DNA from: Eledone cirrhosa
Lineage: Eukaryota
Assembly (NCBI GenBank): GCA_964016885.1
Contig: OZ024749.1
Coordinates: 46,810,001-46,874,000 of the forward strand
Direction: 5' to 3'
DNA length: 64,000 bases
Shown: positions 481 to 60,777 of the stretch, piece by piece
Position numbering within the stretch: position 1 is the stretch's first letter
Layout of the letters: every line of letters starts with the position of its first letter
The notes under the pieces: model-generated
Told to the model about the DNA's origin: nothing
Seen by the model: only the letters and a program-made list of their open reading frames with translations
The model's database searches: none
Translations under genes and position numbers: made by a program

Positions 481-1828
481 TATATACATATTTATATATT
501 AAGAGAGAGCGAGAGAGATAGATACTGAGAGATAGATGGATAATAGTACGAGATGAGATGGAAAACATCTCAGGAAAAATATGTTATATACTATCATTTT
601 AAGGATGTATCCTACGAAAGTGTAGATACTACCATTTACCTTGGTATTTTGCTCTTAAACGAAAATGTTCCAAATTTCATATAGTTTCCTTTATCGTTTG
701 AAATGTGTATATTTTATTTGCATGTGTATGTACATATATATACGTGTGTCTTAGTATATGTGGGTGTGTGTGCTTTTTGGAATGTACGTGAGTATATGCA
801 TGTGTACATGATAGAATGTATGTCTGTTGCTCTGTCTGTATTTTGGTGCGTGCGTTTTTATGTGGGTGCAGGTGTGTAGTATATAATTTTCGTTTTCCAT
901 TTTCTAATATGTTCTACGCTAGAACAGTTACACAATAACTGATGCGTATGTTATACAGTTCTCTGCAGTACTTCATACCAGTATATAGTTATATCTTCTC
1001 GGTCTAACAATGGAAACGAACAGTAGTTATATGGGCAACGGTGGAACCCTGAGTATTTATCATGATTTCCTGCTATCACCCATAAATTATATTTCGAAAT
1101 TGTTTCATAAATATTACCGAATATGTGTCTGGGTATACACAAGGGTAAACAAAAAACTAAGAGTTATTTCTCAATATAGTGCACACTAAAACAAAAGGAA
1201 ATAACAATGGGGAAAGTAAAATCGATCAGATTGCTTGAAACATAAACAAATATTTCACATATAATAAAAAAACAAATAACATATAATTGATACATTAGCA
1301 TTGAGTAAGGATGAATAAAACTAGCAATACATATACTTAAAGAGGATGATATTCGCCAAATATACCCCTGCATAGAACATACTGCTATATGTACATTTGC
1401 AATAGAGCTCACATTTTCAAGAACAATCGACCATATACATACCCAGGCACCCAACGCCAAATTATAATGACTTGTATAACTTTAAGTTTAACTTTATGAT
1501 CATCGTGTACCACTCGATGAACTTTAAATTATATGTTGTCACAAGAATTAATTCACTTTCAGTATAGAAGCAACATAATTTTGTTTACATCTACAAATCA
1601 GATGGATCTCATCGAGAGGTCTCGAATCTCATGTCTGAAAAAACGTTATTTACGGTCTCCAATTGTATTGTCAGACAAGATATTAAGTCTTCAAATATTC
1701 AAGGAATGTTAGGAATTATCACACTGATAAATGCCATAACGTAAACAACATTAGCAGTGACAATAGAAACAACAAAGACAGGGACATATATCATTACACT
1801 CAACCAACACAAAATTCACCAAAAAGTG

Positions 1829-6800: not shown

Positions 6801-6840
6801 TTCTCCTGAGGAAGGGTTTATACCCGAAACGCCGTCCGCC
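6801..6840 (+). ncRNA. Hammerhead-like core without a local helix I
   Basis: CTGAGGA-agggt tt ataccc-GAAAC-gcc-GTC. The flanks ctc/cgc do not pair. Confidence 0.45.
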
Positions 6841-11549: not shown

Positions 11550-11757
11550 TTTTGATTTAGGCACTAGGCTAACAACTTTAGGTGTGGGTGATTTCAATTA
11601 TATCAATCCCAGTTACTGGTGCGTTATTTTATCGACCCCGTAAAGATGATAGGCAAAGCTTGCCTCGACGGGATTTGAAATATGAACGTAAAGGGCCATA
11701 CCTCTAATTTCAAAACCATATTGTCCAATGCTCTACAGATACTGTCACTCTACCGTA
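11550..11757 (-). mobile_element. Same SINE, diverged
   Basis: TTATCGACCCCGTAAAGATGATAGGCAAAG...GGGATTTGAA. Confidence 0.7.
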
Positions 11758-13344
11758 CGTAATAATAATAATAATCTTTATAACATTTCCCTAGCAAACG
11801 ATTGCTTCAATTGAAGTATGCACGAAACACTTATTGCGTTTCAATGTTGTATATATATATATATATATATTCATCTTACATCAGGAGTTGATGCTCTTAC
11901 TAGGATAGTAACATTTGTATATTACCCTACGTCGTTGTCATTAATATCACATGTTCATCTCTCTGTATTTATCATTATTTTACATATTTTGGTACACATT
12001 AGATCGAATGCTTGATGAGTGGTGTACAACCCTCAATTATGTTGCTGTAAATTATAGTATTCACATCGCAGGATATTGTCATTTGATATATAGCATATTT
12101 TTCAAATTTCTCCATTTCTGCAACATAATGGATATTATAATGCTTATTTTTATGTTGACATATCATATATGAAGAGGGAACTAAATAATGTTCACCGTGT
12201 TCTTCCGTAAATATTTTGGTTCAAATTATGTTTCACCTTCAACGTGGAATACTGATTATATAGACGCTTTCAGTTTAAAATGGAAGGACATTTTATAGCA
12301 AACATCAATATACATAATTTTATTTGTAAAAAAAAACAGCTTCGTCTTAAAATATTTGGTACTATGATACAGTATCGCTTCTTATGCCTCATATCATATC
12401 CTAGATAATAAAATATTGGTATGGCCTCCGTATATTTACGTAGCTATCCATTAGAATATTTGCTGTTTCATCTCGACAATTCTTTAAGTTGTATAATCAT
12501 TTTAATTTCTATTATATGTCAATTCATTGAAACTATGAAATGAGAAGTTATTGTCAATCAAATTAAAATGTATATGAGACACTACTCATGTAAGGCTTCA
12601 TGTATGCATTCATTGATAATCGGCTTAGGCATAGAACATCACCATACACCTATAAACACATTTAACTGTTACTATATTTCCTTATTATGTTTATGTATAT
12701 TTTCTATTTTTCATTACATCGAATGAGGTAGGCTAACTCAAATATTAATATTTCATCTGATTTTTCTATTTATTACTGAAATAATACTTCCATTTCACTA
12801 TCATAAATACCTTTTTAATGCATTCAATTATATATATATATATATATTTAATACATTAACAGAGACAGTTTTAAGCAATACTCCGACCGACTTCCGTCTC
12901 ACTCAACAAACATTAGGATATACCTTAGTATAGTCCCAATTATACGTTTGGGGTGCTAACTATACGTATTTTGCTGATAGCCAGTTGTATTATTTTATAT
13001 GAGACCTATTTAAATATATAATGAGACATATCCATCTGCATTCTAAAAATTCAAGTGAAATAATTTCCTTACAACAATATTTATATCTGAATCGCATTAC
13101 TTATAAAAGAGTAAATGATAATTTTTCACTCAAAATCAACATTACACTGGAAGTTCTCGTAGACATGTTAGCAAAATAGTGACGGCTATAATCTTATAAT
13201 TCGTTTAGAAATGTCATGACATGGCTTTTGATGTTATCATGCACTAGGATTAACATATTATGCCATACACTTTGTGTACAAACACATATAATTATATGTA
13301 TGTATGTATATATGTATGTACACATATATACACATACACACACA

Positions 13345-13918: not shown

Positions 13919-14311
<393 letters not shown>

Positions 14312-16194: not shown

Positions 16195-16385
16195 GGGCGG
16201 GGGATTGGCAGTATCGGTAGAAGGTCGGACGCCATGCTTTGCAGCATATAGTTACGCCCGTTTATAGTCTGAGTTCAAATCCCGCCAAGGTTCACTTTGC
16301 TTTTCATCCCTACAGGCTCGATAAAATAAAGTACCAGTAATGTACTGGGATACTTTCTGGCCTTGTGCCAAATTAGAAAAATATT
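16195..16385 (+). mobile_element. Same SINE, full length
   Basis: A and B boxes, core and tail as in 273-480. Confidence 0.8.
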
Positions 16386-16776
16386 ATAACTAAAATAGTC
16401 TATATAATAAACAGGCATGTTTAAGTGTTTCAAGAAACCGCATACAATGAACGAATGTGCATATATATACGCTTTCAAAAGTTACAAACAGTTTTTTACG
16501 ATAAATATATAGAGAAGAATGTTCATGCCTTCTTCTTTGTTATGTTTAATTCATGAAATATTATTCAAACATTTATTAAAGTAAAGTACATTTCCATGAA
16601 ATGTCATACGACTTTAAGTGATTTGTTATCGATATTTTACCAATTAACATCATTAGTCCTAAACTAATTAATATCAGTCGAACATCGTTTGCACCTAATT
16701 ATTATTGATATTTTATGAATTTAAAATCAGGTTATTACTGTGTACAATGGCTGAGTACATTTACTTTCCACTCCAT

Positions 16777-20431: not shown

Positions 20432-22021
20432 TGTGTGTGTGTACATATATATATATATAAATATATATATTTGCATAAATCTAGTGATAATTATCATAAG
20501 AACTCAAATGATTTCAAGGATATGATATACTTATCATAATATTGTAGGTTTACTTATTTGAGTGTATCAGATTTGGATTTAAGAAAAGCAGCTGCCTTGC
20601 CTTCTAAAATAATCCAGAAGTATGTATAACACAATTGCAATCATTCTTCACAAATGTTTGATAGTCTGTTCAACAGAGTATTAATCTCAAGAACAGCATC
20701 ATCGATGAGCCTTTAATCCTTTTTGTTTTATATTTGTTGGCTTACATGAAACTCGTATGATCTTTATAGACGTATCCTTTGACACATGTTTCATCCTGCA
20801 TTTTGCTTTGAGTTGTGTGTACAATTGTGAAGAAATATGATGGAGATGTAAAAGGAGACAAAATAGAGATTACAAAATATATTGGTTCTTAATATGTGTT
20901 CTGTTCTGGGTTTATTTGAAGTTGATTCTCAAATAATGCGATAGATGTTCCCCAAACGTATAATGTGGGATTATATCCTATGAGCTATACAGTTTACCTC
21001 GGGCTCCTACAGGAAATATTCCACATAATTTTCTCTGATCTAATATGGAATCTATCTTGATGTTCTATGTATAGATGTATTATTCAGTAGCCTATTGAAC
21101 ATAAAGTTAGATAAAGTGTTGCTATTTGTTAGGTTTACATATTACATCAGTTGACATGCGTTCTATGAAAATAAAATCAGTATGCAATTTCCTTGGGCCT
21201 ATTGATCAATTTAGTTGCCGTAATGTTGTTGTTTCCACAGTAGATTTGAATAACGTCATATATATCGTATACTTAACAATAAGGTTATACATATATTTAC
21301 CTTGATTTGTTACTAATAAATATGTGTATATTATGCAGTAGCTAGATCATATTTTATTGTCTACGAATTTTGTTACGTTCAGTGCAAATTAATATTCCGT
21401 ACTCTTGTTTATATGATACACATGCTATCTATTGTTACTATCTTCCTAACGTATTATATAGTGATTCAAATGTCTTTCCTTTATTCCTATGAATAAATGA
21501 AACGTATAAGTTGTGTGAAAGTCAGAATGCAGAAACACATCTTGCTGTTAAACTTCGCACCAAAACAGATATAAAAATATACTGGCAAGAATCAAGAGAT
21601 CGAATTCTCAACCCGTTGTGTTCCATTTGGGCATTTGCTCATATGCGATTGATAATATATGATGCATTTTAATATCCAGTAATGGAACGGGCTTAATCAG
21701 TATCATTTTCCCGTCCCAAACTTTGTGAAATTTAGAAATATGCATTATAATAAATTTGAACTTTTGCATGGGTAATACAATGATGCAATTCATACATTAA
21801 ACATGTAGCCCACATTCAGTTCCATATTCAAAGGTGAATGATAAATTACCTATTTGATACTTGATGATATTTATCAAACATGGAATCCAATAGGACAATA
21901 ATATGAAGTGGATAATACATTTATGCGTGACAGTTTGTATATACTTCAGATGAACTTATATTAATGGAAAATCAAAATATAGAACTTATTATGATTGTTT
22001 ATATATTTGTTGATGTTATCC

Positions 22022-22170
22022 CAATGTATTACTGATACTTTATTTTATCGACCCCGTAAGGATAAAAGGCAACGTTAACATCGGCGGGATTTGAACTCAG
22101 ACAGTAAAGGGCCGTAACTCTTTGCTGCAAAGCAATGCGTCCGAGCCTCTAGTGATACTGCCAATCTACC
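22022..22170 (-). mobile_element. Same SINE (head plus core)
   Basis: Core, GGATTTGAAC and GATACTGCCAAT. Confidence 0.75.
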
Positions 22171-22180
22171 GGTTATATCA

Positions 22181-22292
22181 TATAATAATTGTTTCTCCTT
22201 TTGGCACAAGACCAGCAATTAACCAGTACATTACTGGTACTTTATTTTATCGACCCCGTAAGAATGAAAGGCAAAGTCAATCTCGGCGGGAT
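22181..22292 (-). mobile_element. Same SINE (5'-truncated)
   Basis: Tail and core up to CTCGGCGGGATT. Confidence 0.75.
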
Positions 22293-23428
22293 TGACTTTG
22301 CCAATCATATAATAATGATATTTATTTATCCTCAATATAATCAGTGAAGAGATGGAGGACAATGTATTCAACTTTATGGCACATCTACATAGTCATTCAC
22401 CATGCCAGAAATAGCAGCCACATGTCAGGCTCAAAATCATATATACAGACAAACACACCCACCAACACACATATATATAAGTATATATACATATACTGAC
22501 GTATATGCATGGTTGAAATACCCAAGGGTATTACCACTCTATCCATAGGATGAGATAAATATAAATAACTATAACATTGGCATTTAGAGCTTCTTTACTT
22601 TCTTTTAAATATAAACGCCAACGCAGGATTAATAACACTGATGGTACATCTTTCATCACTTTACTCATTATTCACCTTAAAACCAAATAATAATATATAC
22701 AACTAGTATTTCAGTGTTTTGTTAATGTCTGCACACTAAATGAATGCCAAATAAAAAAAGTTAATAACTTTCATTTTTGAAACTTTAACTTTGTGTTCCA
22801 CACACAAAACATAAACAAAAATACTACAACAGTTAACACTCGGGAATTATCTCTTTAATAGCAAACATCAAAGTTTCTTTAATTTTTCTGAATTTGAGAA
22901 ATATTGCCAAACATTTAGTCGTGAACTTAGAATTTAATCTAATACTTTCCACGTTCTTTGAAGAAATTTTCCGCAGATTACATTACATCTTACAATAAGA
23001 AAAAAATGCAGACTCCAAGATTCTGGTTTTCTTTTCCTGTTACTAAATAAGCTTACCAAGATTCTACTATTATCTGTTTGTTCTTCATGAATTATATAAT
23101 TTGTATTTTTTTCATGCCGCTGATGAAGCTTTTGTTGTCGTGGCTGCAATTAAGGATGTCGGTTATGCAGAATTGAATATTCCCGTGAACGGAGGATCAA
23201 TAAAATGAAAGGAAACAAGCACTTATCACGGGTTTTTTAATCTTAGTAAAATAATAAAAAAATTACAAGCACTACTTTGTAGTGATTGTTTGATGTCAAA
23301 TGCAGACATTTTAATCGGATATCTATAAAAAAACAAAGTTAAACAAATATAAGTGATTTTCTTTGAAGAGATCGGATATATATATATATATACATATGTA
23401 TGTATGTATGTATATATATGTGTATATA

Positions 23429-28740: not shown

Positions 28741-29070
28741 AAAGTTATATTTAAATTGTTGTGTTACAACTAGTAAATATTTATAACTGATATAAAAGCA
28801 CTCGACAAATATTTGGAGTATATTTACAATATTGAATAAATGGAAACTATATTTATAAAACCATATTTATTTCATTATATATATTTCAGGGATAACATAT
28901 TAACAATATGCTATGCCTTCCTCAGACAAAATACAATATAAACAGTTTTATAGATAAATAGATTCGACATACCGTAACAACATCTACTTGGGAAGGTTTA
29001 ATATGTTATCCCTGAAATATATATAATGAAATAAATATGGTTTTATAAATATAGTTTCCATTTATTTAAT

Positions 29071-29076
<6 letters not shown>
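28739..29076 (-). mobile_element. PLE family D 3' end with HHR and inverted arm (28998-29076)
   Basis: The arm is the reverse complement of 28824-28903. TA flanks. Homologous to 30250-30625 and 17660-17753. Confidence 0.75.
28868..28933 (-). ncRNA. Minimal hammerhead with palindromic ATAT loop III
   Basis: tattttgt-CTGAGGA-agg...cct-GAAAT-ATAT-ATA-atgaaata. Confidence 0.75.
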
Positions 29077-30256: not shown

Positions 30257-30625
30257 ATATTAAGTAAATGGAAACTATATTTATAACAGCATATGTATTG
30301 TATTGTATACATTTGAAGGGTACCACATCAGATAAAATAAGATAAGAAGTGTATTTTAAAAATGTTGTCATAACCAAGGTATATATATATACCTTAACGG
30401 TTCAGATTTTCCTTGGATAGTCGTATTTTATCTGATGTTTGCGTACCAACATTTCGGTACCCTTGAAATATATATAATAGAATAAATATGGTTTTATAAA
30501 TATGGTTTCCATGTATTTAATACCATTGTATATTATACTGCAGAAAACTTGTCGAGTGCTCTGAATCAGTTATAAACATTTATATACGTTGAATTACCAA
30601 ATAATTGAATATCCCTTCCGCTTAT
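30250..30625 (+). mobile_element. PLE family D 3' end with a degenerate HHR and a diverged inverted arm (30250-30338)
   Basis: tattttat-CTGATG...GAAATATATATA-atagaata. The tail GTCGAGTGCTCTGAATCAGTTATAAACATTTA is shared within the family. Confidence 0.7.
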
Positions 30626-32611: not shown

Positions 32612-32977
32612 GAATGCAAATAACTATGTGTATACTCTGGTAATGTATCTTAAATTGCCCATCGAGTGCGCTGAGATACAACCGGTAGTGGCATTGATAA
32701 ATATGCTGGGTTCGTCAACCCTTATTATATATATGTATATATATATATATATAAACAATTAAGTTAAAAATGTACATCCACATATGTATACTGAAATACT
32801 AGTATGCATATGAATACACACACGTATACATATGTAGATGTACCAAGTCTTTCACTGGTCACTTTATTGTGAGTATCCAGCTATTCTGTATGTAAACACA
32901 CAGACAAACCGGTTTTTAGAGTCATACTGGTTTTTGAGGAAACACCTTTCCTCTATTCTCCAGAAAGCCAGACAAGG

Positions 32978-33022
32978 AATATTGAACCAGTTTCGTTGTT
33001 GTTACAACTCATCAGCAATATT
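32978..33022 (-). ncRNA. Minimal type I hammerhead ribozyme (R1 copy 1)
   Basis: - strand: aatattg-CTGATGA-gttg taacaa caac-GAAAC-tg-GTT-caatatt. Helix I is 7 bp and helix II is 4 bp. Confidence 0.8.
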
Positions 33023-33443
33023 TACCTATCTACCGGCCTTTCTGGAGAATCGTAAAAGCACATATCGTTATATGCTTTTTCTATGAACATTAGTAGTGGG
33101 CAGACTAATTTGCATAGAGTGTGAGTACGTACCGGTTCAACGGAGACGATATAAACAAATAACGAAACGAAAATAAATTTCGTTTCGTTTGTAACTCACT
33201 TTTGTATGACTGACGCTTAAACAATTAAGTTAAAAATGTACATCCTCATATGTATACTGAAATACTAGTATGCATATGAATACACACACGTATACATATG
33301 TAGATGTACCAAGTCTTTCACTGGTCACTTTATTGTGAGTATCCAGCTATTCTGTATGTAAACACACAGACAAACCGGTTTTTAGAGTCATACTGGTTTT
33401 TGAGGAAACACCTTTCCTCTATTCTCTAGAAAGCCAGACAAGG

Positions 33444-33488
33444 AATATTGAACTAGTTTCGTTGTTGTTACAACTCATCAGCAATATT
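33444..33488 (-). ncRNA. Minimal type I hammerhead ribozyme (R1 copy 2)
   Basis: Same as copy 1, with the palindromic helix III ACTAGT intact. Confidence 0.85.
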
Positions 33489-33883
33489 TACCTATCTACC
33501 GGCCTTTCTGGAGAATCGTAAAAGCACATATCGTTATATGCTTTTTCTATGAAAATTAGTAGTGGGCAGACTAATTTGCATAGAGTGTGAGTACGTACCG
33601 GTTCAACGGAGACGATAAAAACAAATAACGAAACGAAATTAAATTTCGTTTCGTTTGTAACTCACTTTTGTATGACTGACACTTAAACAATTAAGTTAAA
33701 AATGTACATCCACATATGTATACTGAAATTTAATTTCGTTTCGTTATTTGTTTTTATCGTCTCCGTTGAACCGGTACGTACTCACACTCTATGCAAATTA
33801 GTCTGCCCACTACTAATTTTCATAGAAAAAGCATATAACGATATGTGCTTTTACGATTCTCCAGAAAGGCCGGTAGATAGGTA

Positions 33884-33928
33884 AATATTGCTGATGAGTT
33901 GTAACAACAACGAAACTAGTTCAATATT
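33884..33928 (+). ncRNA. Minimal type I hammerhead ribozyme (R1 inverted copy)
   Basis: aatattg-CTGATGA(33891-97)-gttg taacaa caac-GAAAC(33912-16)-TA-GTT-caatatt. Confidence 0.85.
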
Positions 33929-34216
33929 CCTTGTCTGGCTTTCTGGAGAATAGAGGAAAGGTGTTTCCTCAAAAACCAGTATGACTCTAAAAACCGGTGT
34001 GTCTATGTGTTTACATACAGAATAGCTGGATACTCACAATAAAGTGACCAGTGAAAGACTTGGTACATCTACATATGTATACGTGTGTGTATTCATATGC
34101 ATACTAGTATTTCAGTATACATATGTGGATGTACATGTTTAACTTAATTGTTTAAGCGTCAGTCATACAAAAGTGAGTTACAAACGAAACGAAATTTAAT
34201 TTCGTTTCGTTATTTG

Positions 34217-34257
<41 letters not shown>

Positions 34258-34260
<3 letters not shown>

Positions 34261-34495
34261 TGGAAACAAATGAAACGAAATTTCATTTAACACTCTTAGT
34301 ACGGCTGTTACTTAAATATAAGTATGGATACGTACATACATATATGTATACAGACGTACAAACGTATGCATATATATACATACATGCACAGATATATAAA
34401 TGTACGTATGGATATACCGAACATTTATTATAATGCTCGGTTGGTTGTTAAACAAACATCCCGAATTAAGCCGTACGCTAAACGATGCGAGAATC
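34258..34495 (-). mobile_element. Partial copy of family R2, next to the R1 array
   Basis: Matches 60130-60350: TGAAACGAAA, GTACGGCTGTTACTTAAATATAAGTATG, ACCGAACATTTATTATAATG, AAACAAACATCCCG, TTAAGCCGTA. Confidence 0.8.
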
Positions 34496-36409: not shown

Positions 36410-37019
36410 CATTGAGTATATGTTGGTTGCTTACCGACGTCATAGTATGCAGATTGGAGCACTCGACGAAGTACGCAGGTTGGTTTCGTTACTCCGGAGT
36501 AATGTAAAATAAAGTAATTAAGTCAAATATTTAAGATTTGGCTTCGTTTATTAAAGATGTACTGCTATTTATATTTCGGTGACAGCCATCATTGGCTGTG
36601 ACCTCTTCAGGCAGTTCGAATTGGTGTTGTAGAGACAGGTACACATGTTGTTAAAGTGTTTTACTCCGTCAATACTCCGATATGTCCAGCTCCTGGTTGG
36701 GTTGTTATTTCTCTGAGGAACAGGAATCATATGAATTCTAACAAACGAATTCCGGCGTCATAGGTCACTCTCTCATCCCATTGGTCAGTTGTGAGAACAT
36801 TCCTCAGTCAAAATTCTATAGAAATCCTTTTCTGAGGCAATCTGTTGTGGTTGTTTTTTTTTAAGTACAGCTGACCCCTCCCCCCCCCCACCATCCCCTT
36901 GTATTTATTGGTGTTAGGGGGTCAGCTGGCAGGTCAGACTTAGTTCTACTGCTGGTGTCTTTAGAAGAATGAGTGTGTGTGGGTAGGCACCCACACACAC
37001 TCATTCTTCTCAACACATC

Positions 37020-43955: not shown

Positions 43956-44573
43956 TGGAATAGCTTAGATAGGGCTAGACATAAGATAGGGAAAGCCACC
44001 TCATGGTACAACAACCAGAGATACCAGAGTGTCATGTTTGTGGACGCTAACCCTGGAGGGAAATTAGCTAACCCGTGTAGAAAGACCCTGAGAAAGACCC
44101 ACTTAAATATTAAGGTGGGAGAAAAGCCAGGAACTACCATAAAATCCCTGATCAGCAAAACCTACCCTTTTAAGAAAACCCACTGTACTAATAGGAAATG
44201 TATCATATGTAAAGTATGCCCCCGGATAAACTGTAAAACTAGAAACGTAGTCTATAGCATGAGATGTACACAGGGTACTTGCAGAAACATTACAACAACA
44301 TACATAGGCGAGACAGCTCGTAGCATAGGTGAAAGGATAGAACAATACTGGGGGGAACTAAAAGGACGAAAAAGCGGTCCAGTACTATACAAACATGCCA
44401 GACAACAACACGACGGTAACATAGACAACATAGAAATTAGAATAATATCTAAACATAGAAATGACCCAGCAGATAGGCAAATCAGACAGGCCAGTGAAAT
44501 GGAACTTAGAAGGCCAAGGCTAAAAAGAAATAATGAATGGAATAACAACAACACCCAAACAAGCAACACATGA
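43956..44573 (+). CDS. 5'-truncated Penelope-like element ORF: Cys-rich linker plus C-terminal GIY-YIG endonuclease
   Basis: Frame is open from 43956: WY...SVMFVDANPGG.LA, a CxxxxCxxC linker, NVVYSMRC...C...YIGETARSIGERI, KH...H and a terminal N..W. This is typical of PLE GIY-YIG domains. Confidence 0.9.
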   Translation, partial: WNSLDRARHKIGKATSWYNNQRYQSVMFVDANPGGKLANPCRKTLRKTHLNIKVGEKPGTTIKSLISKTYPFKKTHCTNRKCIICKVCPRINCKTRNVVYSMRCTQGTCRNITTTYIGETARSIGERIEQYWGELKGRKSGPVLYKHARQQHDGNIDNIEIRIISKHRNDPADRQIRQASEMELRRPRLKRNNEWNNNNTQTSNT

Positions 44574-44869
44574 CCTAAGATAAGCATAAATAAATAAATA
44601 GATACATAAATAAATAAATAGATACATAAATAAATAAATACATACACACGCACAATAACAACAAACACATATAAACACACACTAGTAAAGATGGAATACA
44701 TTAACCAATACACAGTCACCCAATCACGAACACGCATCAAATAAAACACTATACACACACGCAAACGCATTCGCAAAGAAGACAAAATAAAATAAACAAA
44801 TAAATAAATATATAAACAGACCAAATAAAGATGGCGTAGAAAACACAATGCAACGGGAGGAAACAATAG

Positions 44870-44912
44870 CACCACTGACGAAGTTGCAGATGTGCAACGA
44901 AAGAACTTTGAT
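44870..44912 (+). ncRNA. Degenerate minimal hammerhead in the PLE 3' UTR
   Basis: cacca-CTGACGA-a gttgca gatg tgcaac-GAAAG-aa-CTT-tgata. Helix I is imperfect. Confidence 0.6.
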
Positions 44913-45604: not shown

Positions 45605-45857
45605 GAAGTAATTCTGTCGGAAAATCCAGGAAAAAAGAGTGCTCTGTGTAGGTAACATAGCTTAATTGTTATGTAATAAACAACATAAGGCAATTATTCC
45701 ATTTACCAGTGGTTTCTTAAAAGCAAAAGATTTGCTTTCAATCCTCAGAATGAAAAAAAGAGACCAGGATTTTTTCATTCTGAGGATTGAAAGCAAAATC
45801 TTTTGCTTTTAAGAAACCACTGGTAAATGGAATAATTGCCTTATGTTGTTTATTACA

Positions 45858-45862
<5 letters not shown>
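45601..45862 (-). mobile_element. Short PLE-type 3' end with fold-back (arms about 45668-45758 and 45770-45861), inside (TA)n
   Basis: Near-perfect inverted repeat with an HHR in each arm and a ~67-bp unique left extension. Confidence 0.8.
45774..45831 (+). ncRNA. Type I hammerhead ribozyme (mirror copy at about 45698-45754, - strand)
   Basis: ttcatt-CTGAGGA-ttgaaagcaaaa tc ttttgcttttaa-GAAAC-cactg-GTA-aatgga. Confidence 0.85.
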
Positions 45863-45923
<61 letters not shown>

Positions 45924-47220
45924 AGTGTGTATGTATACATATTCATAATTTGCCTCTGTGCTTTACTGTTACAAAGCGGTCTTTGACGGCGTTTACCGGA
46001 TACACATGGATTGAACACTATTTTCATTTCATACGGATAATATGTTGTTTACGCTGCATCTCTATGTAATTTGGTTGCACGTTTTCATCTGATGTCTGAA
46101 TTGATGGTTATGTAGGAGTAATTCTTCACAGCATTTAAATTTTGCCGACTTTGAATTAAATTTTGCCGATTTTGAATTAAATCTTGTCTTGTTAACTATT
46201 CAATAAAACAGTTTGGCAATAATAACTTAGAACTATTGCCACATGATACTTTTCAGGTATTAATAATTGTCTTTGAAATGTTGCAATATAAAGTAAATAT
46301 TAAAAATATTAGTTGGCAAGAGACATATTCGAGTAGAATAATTTTACCGCAATACACTTTAATCCCCGTAAAATATATAATACACGCATTCATAATTTAG
46401 TAATTACACAGTAGTTCTCTTGAAACATACATCTGACAGATCTGGGCAACATATGAACTTGTTTTCTGCTTTTATTCCTGCCAAAATCAGCAAATAGACA
46501 CGTATCCGCTATGTTAGAACAACAATCCAAATTCGAAATTTGGTTTTAATTTTCAGCCAAGAAAGCCATAATATCGCTCGCTATGCAAATTAGGGTAATC
46601 AGTCTATGTATACTTTAGAGATTAGTATACCTTCTCAAGAGTTCTAGAGAGTAACAGAAGACGGATAAGTATTCTTGACAAAGGCAATTAAAGGCCCAGA
46701 AACAATATTGCCGTTTGTTTCTCTGTGTCACCCCAAGGATCGCGAGGGTCATCTAGAAAATATACTGAATTAAGTCTGTTTTCTTACAGACGAAACGAAT
46801 ATTATAATTAGGTGATACAAAACTCATGAATACATTCTAAGTATCCGCTATGCTATATCAAAAAGCTAAACTCTAATTTTATTTTTTATCGTATTTTCTT
46901 TACATAAATTCGAAAATATAATCAAATAATTAATAAACGGTAATGTATCGGTTAAATCCAACTCCCTGACATGGTAATGGTACAGTGTGTCACAATGTGT
47001 GTATCGATTGCCATAGTTATTATCATTTTATTGACTTTAATTATTTATTACTAACATACGTTGAAAATTAGCTCGACATTAGATATGTTCCTTGAAGTAA
47101 ATATGTATGCGATATCTGCATATATTATTCAGATTATTGCAAAAGAAATATATATGTACACATACATAGTCGTAAACATACACAAACAGACAGCCACATT
47201 TACAAAGACACACACACATT

Positions 47221-48186: not shown

Positions 48187-48979
48187 GTATAGGATTACCC
48201 AAGATGTAGTACTGGTTAATTACTACACTGGATATGGTTGACGTACGGTGAAAGGTTACTCTACGAGTTATGGAATTATTGTTGAAGAAACTTAGTTCCT
48301 GATCCTTCTGTATTCCGGAGTGTATATAAAGAATGAATAATAACAGGCAGACGTCAAAAAAGGTAATTTATTCCGTGTGCTTACAAATGTTTCCACGGTG
48401 GTACTACAGCCTAGTTATGCTATGTGCAAATTTACAAGTATTTACAGAACTCAAATATCCAATGCTGTGACCACTGTATCCTCAGAGCAGAATGGTAAAT
48501 TGTACAATGTAAATACCATTAAGTGGGGTTGTTGGGGATGATATAGTAGAAAAGGAAGAGAGAAAAGTAGGGGAGAGGGAGAGAGAGAGAAAGATATGCA
48601 GGGGTTAGAGAAGTAGGAGAGAGTGGTTTGTAGATGTCTTAATCAGAATGTTATGGTAGGGGTTTTATTATACTGGTTACTTTTGGAGAGATGCGTTGAT
48701 AGTTAAGGTCGGAATTATTTATTGCCCCAGAGGGCAGGTTCATAGATGTGGTGAGGGAGGTAGGCCAAAGGCGAGAGAGAGAGTGTGTAATGGATGTTGA
48801 GAGAGAGGTAGAGAGGGGACAGACTAAGTTTATGTGGTGAGTGAACTTTGGATTTGTAGTAGTAATCTATGAATTGCATTGGGTTACCATTTATAGTGAT
48901 AAGCAGTGTATTGTCTTGTAGTGTGGGGGAAGAGAAGATGGTTAGCAAGAAAGCGATGTTATAGTTACGGGTTCGAATG

Positions 48980-49236
48980 TTAAGTTATTTTATAGTGAGC
49001 GAATTTAGCTTTTAGTTTGTGGTTGCAGTATAATGATCGTTCAATTCTATCGTTAAGTAGTTTGTTTTGGGATATTAATATGTAAAAGAGTTCAAGGTTA
49101 CATAACCTGCAGTACTTCAATCCACTCCGATATGCACTTGCGCTGGAAAGTATATCCCATTTTAAGGTGAACTGTTGGTTGCGTTCACGGAGTTGCCAGG
49201 TCTTGTTGGCGAGCTTGGTTACAAAACACCGTTGTG
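48980..49236 (-). pseudogene. C-terminal fragment of a PLE GIY-YIG endonuclease (KW...CxxC..E...LNxRxE...CxH type, possibly Hydra clade)
   Basis: TKLANKTWQLRE...LKWDILSSASAY...CRLCNLELFYI...LLNDRIERSLYCNH. The N-terminal part of the track ORF (49237-49297) comes from the inverted arm. The clade assignment is from memory and untested. Confidence 0.75.
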
Positions 49237-49707
49237 AACTATAACATCGCTTTCTTGCTAACCACCTTTTCTTCCCCCACACTACAAGACAATACACTGC
49301 TTATCACTATAAATGGTAACCCAGTGCAATTCATAGATTACTACTACAAACCCAAGGTTCACTCACCACATAAACTTAGTCTGTCCCCTCTCTACCTCTC
49401 TCTCTACATCCATTACACTCTCTCTCTCTCGCATTTGGCCTACCTCCCTCTCCACATCTATGAACCTGCCCTCTGGGGCAATACATAATTCCGACCTTAA
49501 CTATCAACGCATCTCTCCAAAAGTAACCAGTATAATAAAACCCCTACCATAACATTTTGATTAAGATATCTACAAACCACTCTCTCCTACTTCTCCAACC
49601 CCTGCATATCGTTCTCTCTCTCTCCCCTACTTTTCCCTCTTCCTTTTCTACTCTATCTTCCCCAACAACCCCACTTAATGGTATTTACATTGTACAATTT
49701 ACCATTC

Positions 49708-49819
49708 TGCTCTGAGGATACAGTGGTCACAGCGTTGGATATTTGAGTTCTGCAAATACTTGTAAATTTGCACATAGCATAACTAGGCTGTAGTACCACC
49801 GTGGAAACATTTGTAAGCA
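49708..49819 (+). ncRNA. Type I hammerhead with a long helix II insertion (mirror copy at 48378-48489, - strand)
   Basis: tgct-CTGAGGA-tacagtggtcacagc...gctgtagtaccaccgtg-GAAAC-attt-GTA-agca. Confidence 0.8.
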
Positions 49820-49865
49820 CACGGAATAAATTACCTTTTTTGATGTCTGCCTGTTATTATTCATT

Positions 49866-50270
<405 letters not shown>

Positions 50271-59679: not shown

Positions 59680-59856
59680 GAGGATATTGGATAGAGATTC
59701 GGACATGTTTTCCGGCATAGTTACGTCCCTTTAGGTTCTGGGTTCAAATCCCGCCGAGTTTCACTTTGCCTTTCATCCTTACGTGGTAGATGAAATAAAG
59801 TACCAGTAATGTACTGGATAAATGGTGGCCTTGTGACATAAGTAGAAACAATTATT
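59680..59856 (+). mobile_element. Same SINE
   Basis: GGTTCAAATCCCGCCGAG...GCCTTTCATCCTTACG...AAGTACCAGTAATGTACTGG...AGTAGAAACAATTATT. Confidence 0.8.
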
Positions 59857-60129: not shown

Positions 60130-60131
<2 letters not shown>

Positions 60132-60665
60132 AAAAAATGAAACGAAAATTCATCTCCCACTTTTAGTACGGCTGTTACTTAAATATAAGTATGTACACGT
60201 ACATACATATATGTATACATACGTACAGTAGTATGTATATATATATATATACACACATGCACACACATACATATATGTACGTATGGATTCACCGAACATT
60301 TATTATAATGTTCGGTGTGTTTGTAAACAAACATCCCGTATTAAGCCGTAGTGTCTAGCAACCATCGTTGCTCGTTTGTTCAACACTGACAAATGAACGC
60401 TGTACTAGTTTCAAGCTTATTAGCTATAGTCAGCAACGTATACCCTCCTGCCAGATTGTTGAACGTCTGAAAGTATATATTTTCCTTATGCATATTAACG
60501 GCTGAGTAGCCCAATTTGCATATCGAGTGGGTTAATCGGCCGGGTGCACCGAAAACGATAAACGGAAAAAATGAAACGAAATTGCATTTCCCACTCTTAG
60601 TACGGCTATTACTTAAATATAAGTATGTACACGTACATATATATATCGATACAGACGTACAGTAG

Positions 60666-60708
<43 letters not shown>

Positions 60709-60773
60709 GCACACACATACATAAATGTACGTATGGATTCACCGAACATTTATTATAATGCTCAGTGTGTTTG

Positions 60774-60777
<4 letters not shown>
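60130..60777 (-). mobile_element. Retrozyme-like array, family R2: about 1.5 tandem copies of a 434-bp unit, flanked by (TA)n
   Basis: GGAAAAAATGAAACGAAA at 60130 and 60564. HHR at 60397-60439, ATTTGCAT at 60514-60521. Colinear similarity to R1. Confidence 0.8.
60397..60439 (-). ncRNA. Minimal type I hammerhead (R2), G8 mutated in this copy
   Basis: - strand: acgttg-CTGACTA-tagc taataa gctt-GAAAC-TA-GTA-cagcgt. Confidence 0.7.

Follow-up and report, generated by a model that had tools for sequence, protein, structure and literature searches.

A candidate internal octamer-TATA promoter in hammerhead-bearing repeats of Eledone cirrhosa

Hammerhead repeat families in the window

The window, by which we mean the whole stretch of 64,000 nucleotides of Eledone cirrhosa contig OZ024749.1 that was analysed, is AT-rich (GC 0.20-0.36), has many (TA)n tracts, and contains three related repeat families, designated R1, R2 and R3. 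R1 occurs as an array of 2.1 copies of a 466-bp unit at 32752..33729 on the reverse strand, with its outer end on (TA)n, and as an inverted copy of about 1.07 unit at 33725..34223 (+), which lies head-to-head with the array and has its 3' end, the common insertion end of the family, on (TA)n. Type I hammerheads were found at 32962..33033 (-) in R1 copy 1, where stem III has two base pairs, at 33428-33499 (-) in copy 2, and at 33873-33944 (+) in copy 3, with a predicted cut after 33921. They match the Rfam HH9 model at E 3e-6 to 7e-6, under the gathering score, which none of them reaches. The R1 cores at 33015 and 33481 stand in consecutive units with a 466-bp period; R2 and R3 each contain a single core, which is mutated and has decayed. 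R2 consists of about 1.5 copies of a ~434-bp unit at 60130..60777 (-), between (TA)n tracts, with its mutated hammerhead at 60398-60438. An R2-type, 5'-truncated fragment with neither octamer nor hammerhead lies at 34260..34475 (-), where it meets R1 copy 3 tail-to-tail at a (TA)n tract common to both. R3, at 46490..46895 (+), is an old, decayed relative with a hammerhead relic at 46675-46703 and a unit of ~339 bp, a length taken from a 49-nt repeat at 76%. Four ORFs compared with Pfam at curated cut-offs gave no match.

On the hammerhead-sense strand of all three families lies the octamer ATGCAAAT, the feature under study, at 33108..33115 (-), 33574..33581 (-) and 33791..33798 (+) in R1 copies 1, 2 and 3, at 60514..60521 (-) in R2, and at 46583..46590 (+) in R3. 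The first-pass annotation of this DNA had reported perfect octamers on this strand in the three R1 copies and in R2, and all four were located; the distances it gave, about 86 nt (R1) and 75 nt (R2) upstream of the ribozyme, agree with the 85 and 75 nt measured before stem I. From the end of the octamer to C3 of the hammerhead core the distance is 92 nt in R1 and 80 nt in R2. The annotation also held that the bases adjoining the octamer had diverged, but the single base on either side of it has not. The three R1 copies are mutually 98% identical and were therefore counted once.

Also found in the window were several other elements. A Penelope-like 3' end at 43956-44910 (+), near (TA)n, has a 205-aa GIY-YIG-like frame and a long AT-rich tail. 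The ORF (43956-44902) has an Atlas score of 0.97, with the family on 13-18% of cluster members, and behind it is a hammerhead core (44876-44902) with no octamer inside 1.7 kb; this region scored no homology against R1-R3. At 48323-49874, with one end on (TA)n, 644-bp inverted repeats (96%) flank a 106-aa frame (48980-49300, -) that by eye resembles the C-terminal portion of an endonuclease of Penelope type. Short head-to-head inverted fragments at 45665-45864 and 14178-14281, with a hammerhead-like core per arm and ends on (TA)n, belong to families other than R1-R3 and lack the octamer, and another (TA)n-flanked family is present in inverted form at 28829-29071 and 30257-30522, with a hammerhead-like motif at 28925 (-). 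Isolated hammerhead-core-like motifs occur at 6806-6829 (+) and 36574-36610 (-). A dispersed SINE-like repeat of ~200 bp is represented by at least seven pieces that are 70-93% alike, including those at 259-486, 1828-2192, 11606-11772, 16196-16406, 22016-22293 and 59704-59856.

Conservation of the octamer

Thirteen octamers occur in the 64-kb window, compared with 7.4 +/- 2.4 in shuffled sequence, a number reached by 2 of 100 shuffles. R1 and R2 are homologous along the entire unit (59% identity, 336 columns), and the longest run identical between them is an 11-nt hairpin arm, not the octamer. Shuffling of the R1/R2 columns produced a 10-nt identity run in 50% of cases, so the R1/R2 evidence alone is not significant.

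Variation within R1 was examined in sequencing run X1, in which 1071 contigs fell on the R1 unit, 459 of them at 99% identity or above, 436 at 95-99%, and the others in classes of 139 and 37. With 895 contigs at 95% or above, R1 is evidently young and abundant in that organism. These contigs have 11 variable sites per 466-bp unit, none in the octamer and two in the block at 33582..33615; three further stretches of 70-86 nt are likewise free of variable sites, and the invariance of the octamer within R1 is therefore uninformative. Four sequencing runs of the 24 listed were compared with one R1 unit, and the others yielded nothing in 12.8 million reads (X22), one contig (X12) and three contigs (X17), at depth under 14. 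Because the bulk of R1 was in X1 only, we do not read the many-organism listing as a sign of host range or transfer. A 50-nt hole over the octamer in X12 was considered as a transcript boundary and rejected, as it belongs to a single contig of depth 5 with one end at a variant site.

A profile built from R1 and R2 picked out a weak match at 46574-46681 (E 0.011), which proved to be part of R3. The R3-R2 alignment scored 271, against 194 +/- 9 in 100 shuffles. Since the octamer had helped to find R3, homology was retested with the 10-mer TATGCAAATT, which comprises the octamer and the base on either side, masked. In a comparison across 1016 windows R2 and R3 were then reciprocal best non-family matches, at robust z 6.6 and 6.2, R1 against R3 reached just 2.5 on the same scale, and the masked positions aligned exactly onto the R3 octamer.

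In the alignment of the three families, where 109 of 317 ungapped columns are invariant, TATGCAAATT is the sole invariant run of 10 columns, the next longest having 5. The probability of this was 0.0035 by column shuffle and 0.0044 by star-tree simulation, both nulls assuming independent columns, which the clustering of real constraint violates (in the hairpin arm 9 of 10 columns are kept), and the independent sequences number three (R1, R2 and R3), one of them decayed. Retention of eight given sites in R3 had P 0.006-0.01, given that 99 of 188 other columns identical in R1 and R2 were kept in R3. The octamer stood out when R3 was included, as part of the longest invariant run (P about 0.004), but not in R1 and R2 alone, so that the case for conservation beyond chance is owing to the third member, not to the R1/R2 pair. 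A role for the octamer as a start codon was rejected; the frames would have 15, 8 and 11 codons and are unconserved past the third codon.

Spacing of octamer, TATA-like element and predicted start

When the families are anchored on the octamer without gaps, a TATA-like element begins at +36 in R1, +35 in R2 and +36 in R3. Its positions are 33069..33072 (-) in R1 copy 1, 36 nt after the octamer, 33535-38 (-) and 33834-37 (+) in copies 2 and 3, 60476-79 (-) in R2 and 46626-29 (+) in R3. A CA follows, its A at TATA +29, +30 and +30 (R1, R2 and R3), and this A is the predicted start: 33043 in R1 copy 1 (CA at 33043..33044, -), 33509 and 33863 in copies 2 and 3, 60449 in R2 and 46656 in R3. So placed, the start would precede stem I by 11-21 nt and the cut by 59 nt in R1 and 47 nt in R2, with the octamer at about -73 to -66 and the TATA-like element at about -30. 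The indels among R1, R2 and R3 lie outside the octamer-to-start span, and the common -1 variant in run X1 (33510, C to T) retains a pyrimidine. The full geometry is present at five of five element octamers (three families) and at none of the eight other octamers in the window, with a background of 0.9-2% per position. For this geometry, which was picked out post hoc, a simulated null of matched homology gave 0.008 for the common TATA and 0.0002-0.0013 on adding the initiator. MAFFT shifts the part of R1 that follows the octamer to a different register, in which TATA and CA are misaligned across the three families. The TATA-like elements match the full TATA box weakly, at just 5-6 of 8 positions, in DNA that is AT-rich.

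In immunoglobulin V promoters the octamer lies near -70 and TATA near -30. Among the genes with the octamer as a POU-factor site are those for H2B, Ig and snRNAs (PMC1800861, PMC11564870), and a consensus octamer probe has the same flanking bases as the 10-mer here (PMC1800861). The arrangement resembles histone H2B and immunoglobulin V promoters, where an octamer upstream of TATA drives Pol II (genes: PMC1800861), but those promoters serve vertebrate protein genes, whereas here the module would lie inside the transcribed unit of a mobile RNA. It seems likely that the R1/R2/R3 unit carries an internal promoter of one type or the other, octamer-TATA or snRNA. On balance, and with modest confidence, we favour an octamer-TATA-initiator promoter for Pol II that is not of the snRNA type; promoter function, start site and polymerase are what we infer from motifs and spacing. 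The first-pass proposal that each unit has its own promoter, regenerated in concatemers, is one that the anatomy fits, and R3 and the fixed octamer-TATA-CA spacing add support to it; the snRNA label attached to it gained no such support, as set out below.

A snRNA-type promoter as in newt satellite 2, in which the octamer would be a distal element acting with a SNAPc-bound PSE, appears unlikely. It could take a compact H1/U6-type form, with the PSE between octamer and TATA, or an extended form, with PSE and TATA ~200 nt downstream. The octamer is conserved in R1, R2 and R3 as this would predict, the newt repeat is a precedent (as cited in PMC2220036), U6-type promoters likewise have TATA at ~-30, and TATAAT occurs 214 (R2) and 220 (R3) nt from the octamer start, compared with 217 nt in S. 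japonicum U6 (PMC5460494). However, four published PSE motifs (H1, U6 and 7SK from PMC1790723; S. japonicum from PMC5460494), which may differ from the host's own PSE, matched no better than shuffles in 24 of 24 tests, the strongest case being equalled by 9 of 60 shuffles. The 20 columns past the octamer are invariant at 7 of 20, which is the unit average, with no conserved block at the expected PSE place, the young family R1 is without the downstream TATAAT, and internal T runs would stop Pol III. A further PSE 10-mer had one match with two mismatches, at +145 in R3 only and so not common to the families, and comparison by eye with the Staf/SPH consensus showed nothing convincing beside the octamer. 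No snRNA gene in the window reached the gathering score. The octamer stands at ~-70 from the predicted start, compared with about -250 (-253) in S. japonicum U6 (PMC5460494) and -97 in human H1 (PMC7949045); in 7SK it is within 240 bp of the start. The lack of PSE-like matches beyond shuffles, the octamer near -70 and an upstream block that folds as RNA together weaken the snRNA label.

R2 (60300-60345) and R3 (46776-46820) have in common a well-kept block that ends in TATAAT ~200 nt after the octamer, and R1 retains the first part of this block without TATAAT. A downstream U6-like promoter (TATAAT at +214/+220) was rejected, as it fails in R1.

We consider it improbable that the motif is a chance survivor, that is, an ancestral AT-rich 10-mer still present in three lineages whose RNA comes from read-through transcription, with the hammerheads releasing monomers. 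About seven octamers per 64 kb arise randomly, three sequences were available of which R1 and R2 alone are not significant, and none of eight further hammerhead-like motifs in the window has an octamer inside 800 nt, all of which would agree with such a history, as would the retrozyme model, which in the Discussion of PMC7229834, as excerpted, requires no named promoter. Against it stand the probability of the run (P about 0.004-0.01) and the empty set of control octamers with the same geometry (0 of 8), and it would be an added coincidence that the best-kept run is the site of a known factor.

Hairpin, insertion ends and putative life cycle

Just 5' of the common insertion end R1 has a predicted 13-bp RNA hairpin (33627..33655, -; further R1 copies at 33161-33189 and 34183-34211). 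The hairpin is present in R1, R2 and R3 (46527-43 in R3), and in it R1 and R3 differ by a C-G to G-C swap. An enclosing stem with one compensatory change is likewise common to R1 and R2 but lost from R3. Upstream of the octamer, a predicted three-way junction folds in R1 (z -2.8) and, weakly, in R2 (z -1.6), and fails in R3 (z -0.9), so the hairpin alone is kept across families. The stretch 33582..33615 (-), which reaches from the octamer to the common insertion end at 33615, had been described as a second conserved block. It contains the insertion end, is predicted to fold as RNA together with upstream sequence in R1 and R2, and is partly deleted in R3, where most of it is lost; it is better read as an RNA hairpin region at the start of reverse transcription.

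Contigs of run X1 end on TA repeats at 33615 (at least 12), 33684 (at least 6) and 33689 (at least 2; 6 of 40 loose-end rows), and the first two of these ends match the window's own element ends at 34223 and 32752. R2, the R2-type fragment and R3 all terminate at the place homologous to the common insertion end. This common 3' end, which directly follows the hairpin and precedes the octamer by 34 nt, we read as the probable start of reverse transcription. With insertions ending ~34 nt upstream of the octamer, the promoter would be regained only by copies of at least a full unit. The Poseidon protein of anole cuts AT-rich DNA and starts reverse transcription at two internal stem-loop sites, for which it needs RNA on the 3' side (PMC11167929).

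These observations could also mean that the 10-mer was conserved as RNA, as part of the binding site of a Penelope-like reverse transcriptase next to its internal start, a possibility to which we give little weight. The 10-mer is 34-41 nt from the common insertion end on the 3' side, where Poseidon needs RNA (PMC11167929), and it is preceded by the hairpin in all three families and by the enclosing stem in R1 and R2. An RNA site would nevertheless leave an exact POU site with matching flanks (those of the probe in PMC1800861) unexplained; the TATA/CA spacing is fixed though the distance to the hairpin varies (a 16-column gap in R3), and the enclosing stem is lost in R3.

R1, R2 and R3 are best read as non-autonomous Penelope-type retrozymes, a refinement of a known kind of element rather than a new system. 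Like metazoan non-LTR retrozymes (PMC7229834; bioRxiv 10.64898/2026.07.22.740005), they are non-coding tandem units of 340-470 bp with one type I hammerhead per unit and a short stem III, occurring as dispersed monomers and dimers alongside Penelope-like elements in the same genome. The excerpts of those two sources drawn on here name no promoter (in the main text of PMC7229834 the word occurs twice, both times for T7), whereas the present repeats have a candidate promoter and a fixed putative start of reverse transcription. The Penelope promoter is internal to the element, and Penelope-like elements typically target (TA)n and show partial tandems as well as inverted copies truncated at the 5' end (PMC8557442). 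The insertion anatomy of R1-R3 fits Penelope-like mobilisation. The likeness extends to a partial tandem joined to an inverted copy truncated at its 5' end, to insertion at (TA)n, to two preferred ends and a hammerhead within the repeat and, on the present reading, to a stem-loop internal start of reverse transcription and a promoter within the repeat, and the cited portions of those sources describe no octamer promoter (PMC8557442, PMC11167929, PMC4209133). For octamer promoters in invertebrate retrozymes or Penelope-like elements we found no description in a search that most subscription papers lie outside, and in the relevant passages of PMC6466107 'octamer' refers to RNA multimers. R1-R3 differ from Penelope-like elements in having no ORF and in the distance between the two ends, 69 nt here compared with 30-40. 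Within the window no sequence link from R1-R3 to an autonomous element was found.

Newt satellite 2, the subject of work by Coats, Zhang and Epstein in 1994, reportedly has an octamer and begins transcription a little way ahead of the cleavage site. Internal promoters are known from newt and schistosome hammerhead satellites (PMC2220036), and newt satellite 2 shares with the present repeats a tandem hammerhead organisation and, on the reading favoured here, transcription by Pol II from within the repeat (cited in PMC2220036). The newt promoter is of the snRNA type with a PSE, whereas here no PSE was found, the octamer is ~70 nt from the predicted start and a TATA-like element lies between them.

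If the octamer-TATA reading is correct, a copy of at least two units would be transcribed from just ahead of the first hammerhead and through the second, and self-cleavage would free a monomer carrying the next promoter as RNA. The monomer would circularise or stay concatemeric, and a Penelope-like reverse transcriptase/endonuclease would nick (TA)n DNA and begin copying the RNA next to the hairpin, at a point ~34 nt 5' of the octamer. From that start the promoter would be copied last in one round and would end up 5'-most. These RNA-level steps follow the retrozyme model (PMC7229834), from which we infer cleavage, circles and a mobilising enzyme. In the R1 array (32752-33729) a candidate promoter module precedes each of the two hammerheads, the order being promoter, hammerhead, a full unit and then the other hammerhead, which makes the array a possible source locus: it could yield a 466-nt monomer, and single-unit copies could not.

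Were this cycle to hold, the promoter would be regenerated on the circle in an LTR-like manner and only dimers or longer copies would act as sources. The position of the promoter would then be tied to the life cycle, both to the set of copies able to serve as sources and to the reason for the location of insertion ends. Animal retrozymes are reported to be strongly transcribed, from a promoter that the cited excerpts do not state (PMC7229834; bioRxiv 10.64898/2026.07.22.740005), and the cited cases of internal promoters are newt and schistosome repeats. The prediction here is at the level of single bases: octamer, TATA, start at 33509/33863 and reverse-transcription start at 33615. More speculatively, animal retrozymes might have repeatedly adopted POU/octamer internal promoters, of snRNA type in the newt and of TATA type here, with the start of reverse transcription immediately 5' of the promoter, such that a full turn rebuilds the promoter ahead of the ribozyme; we offer this generalisation as a doubtful one.

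Viral and metagenome sequences were searched with octamer-free patterns, which gave 29 viral loci and at least 120 metagenome loci. Among the at least 120 metagenome loci listed, the octamer was present in none and an unrelated hammerhead-like motif in one, and the 149 viral and metagenome loci listed included no homologue beyond the pattern itself (best E 0.006). One metagenome contig (L038), profile-unrelated to R1-R3, has at ~601-750 (-) a long hairpin with perfect pairing and, after it, a minimal hammerhead-like motif.
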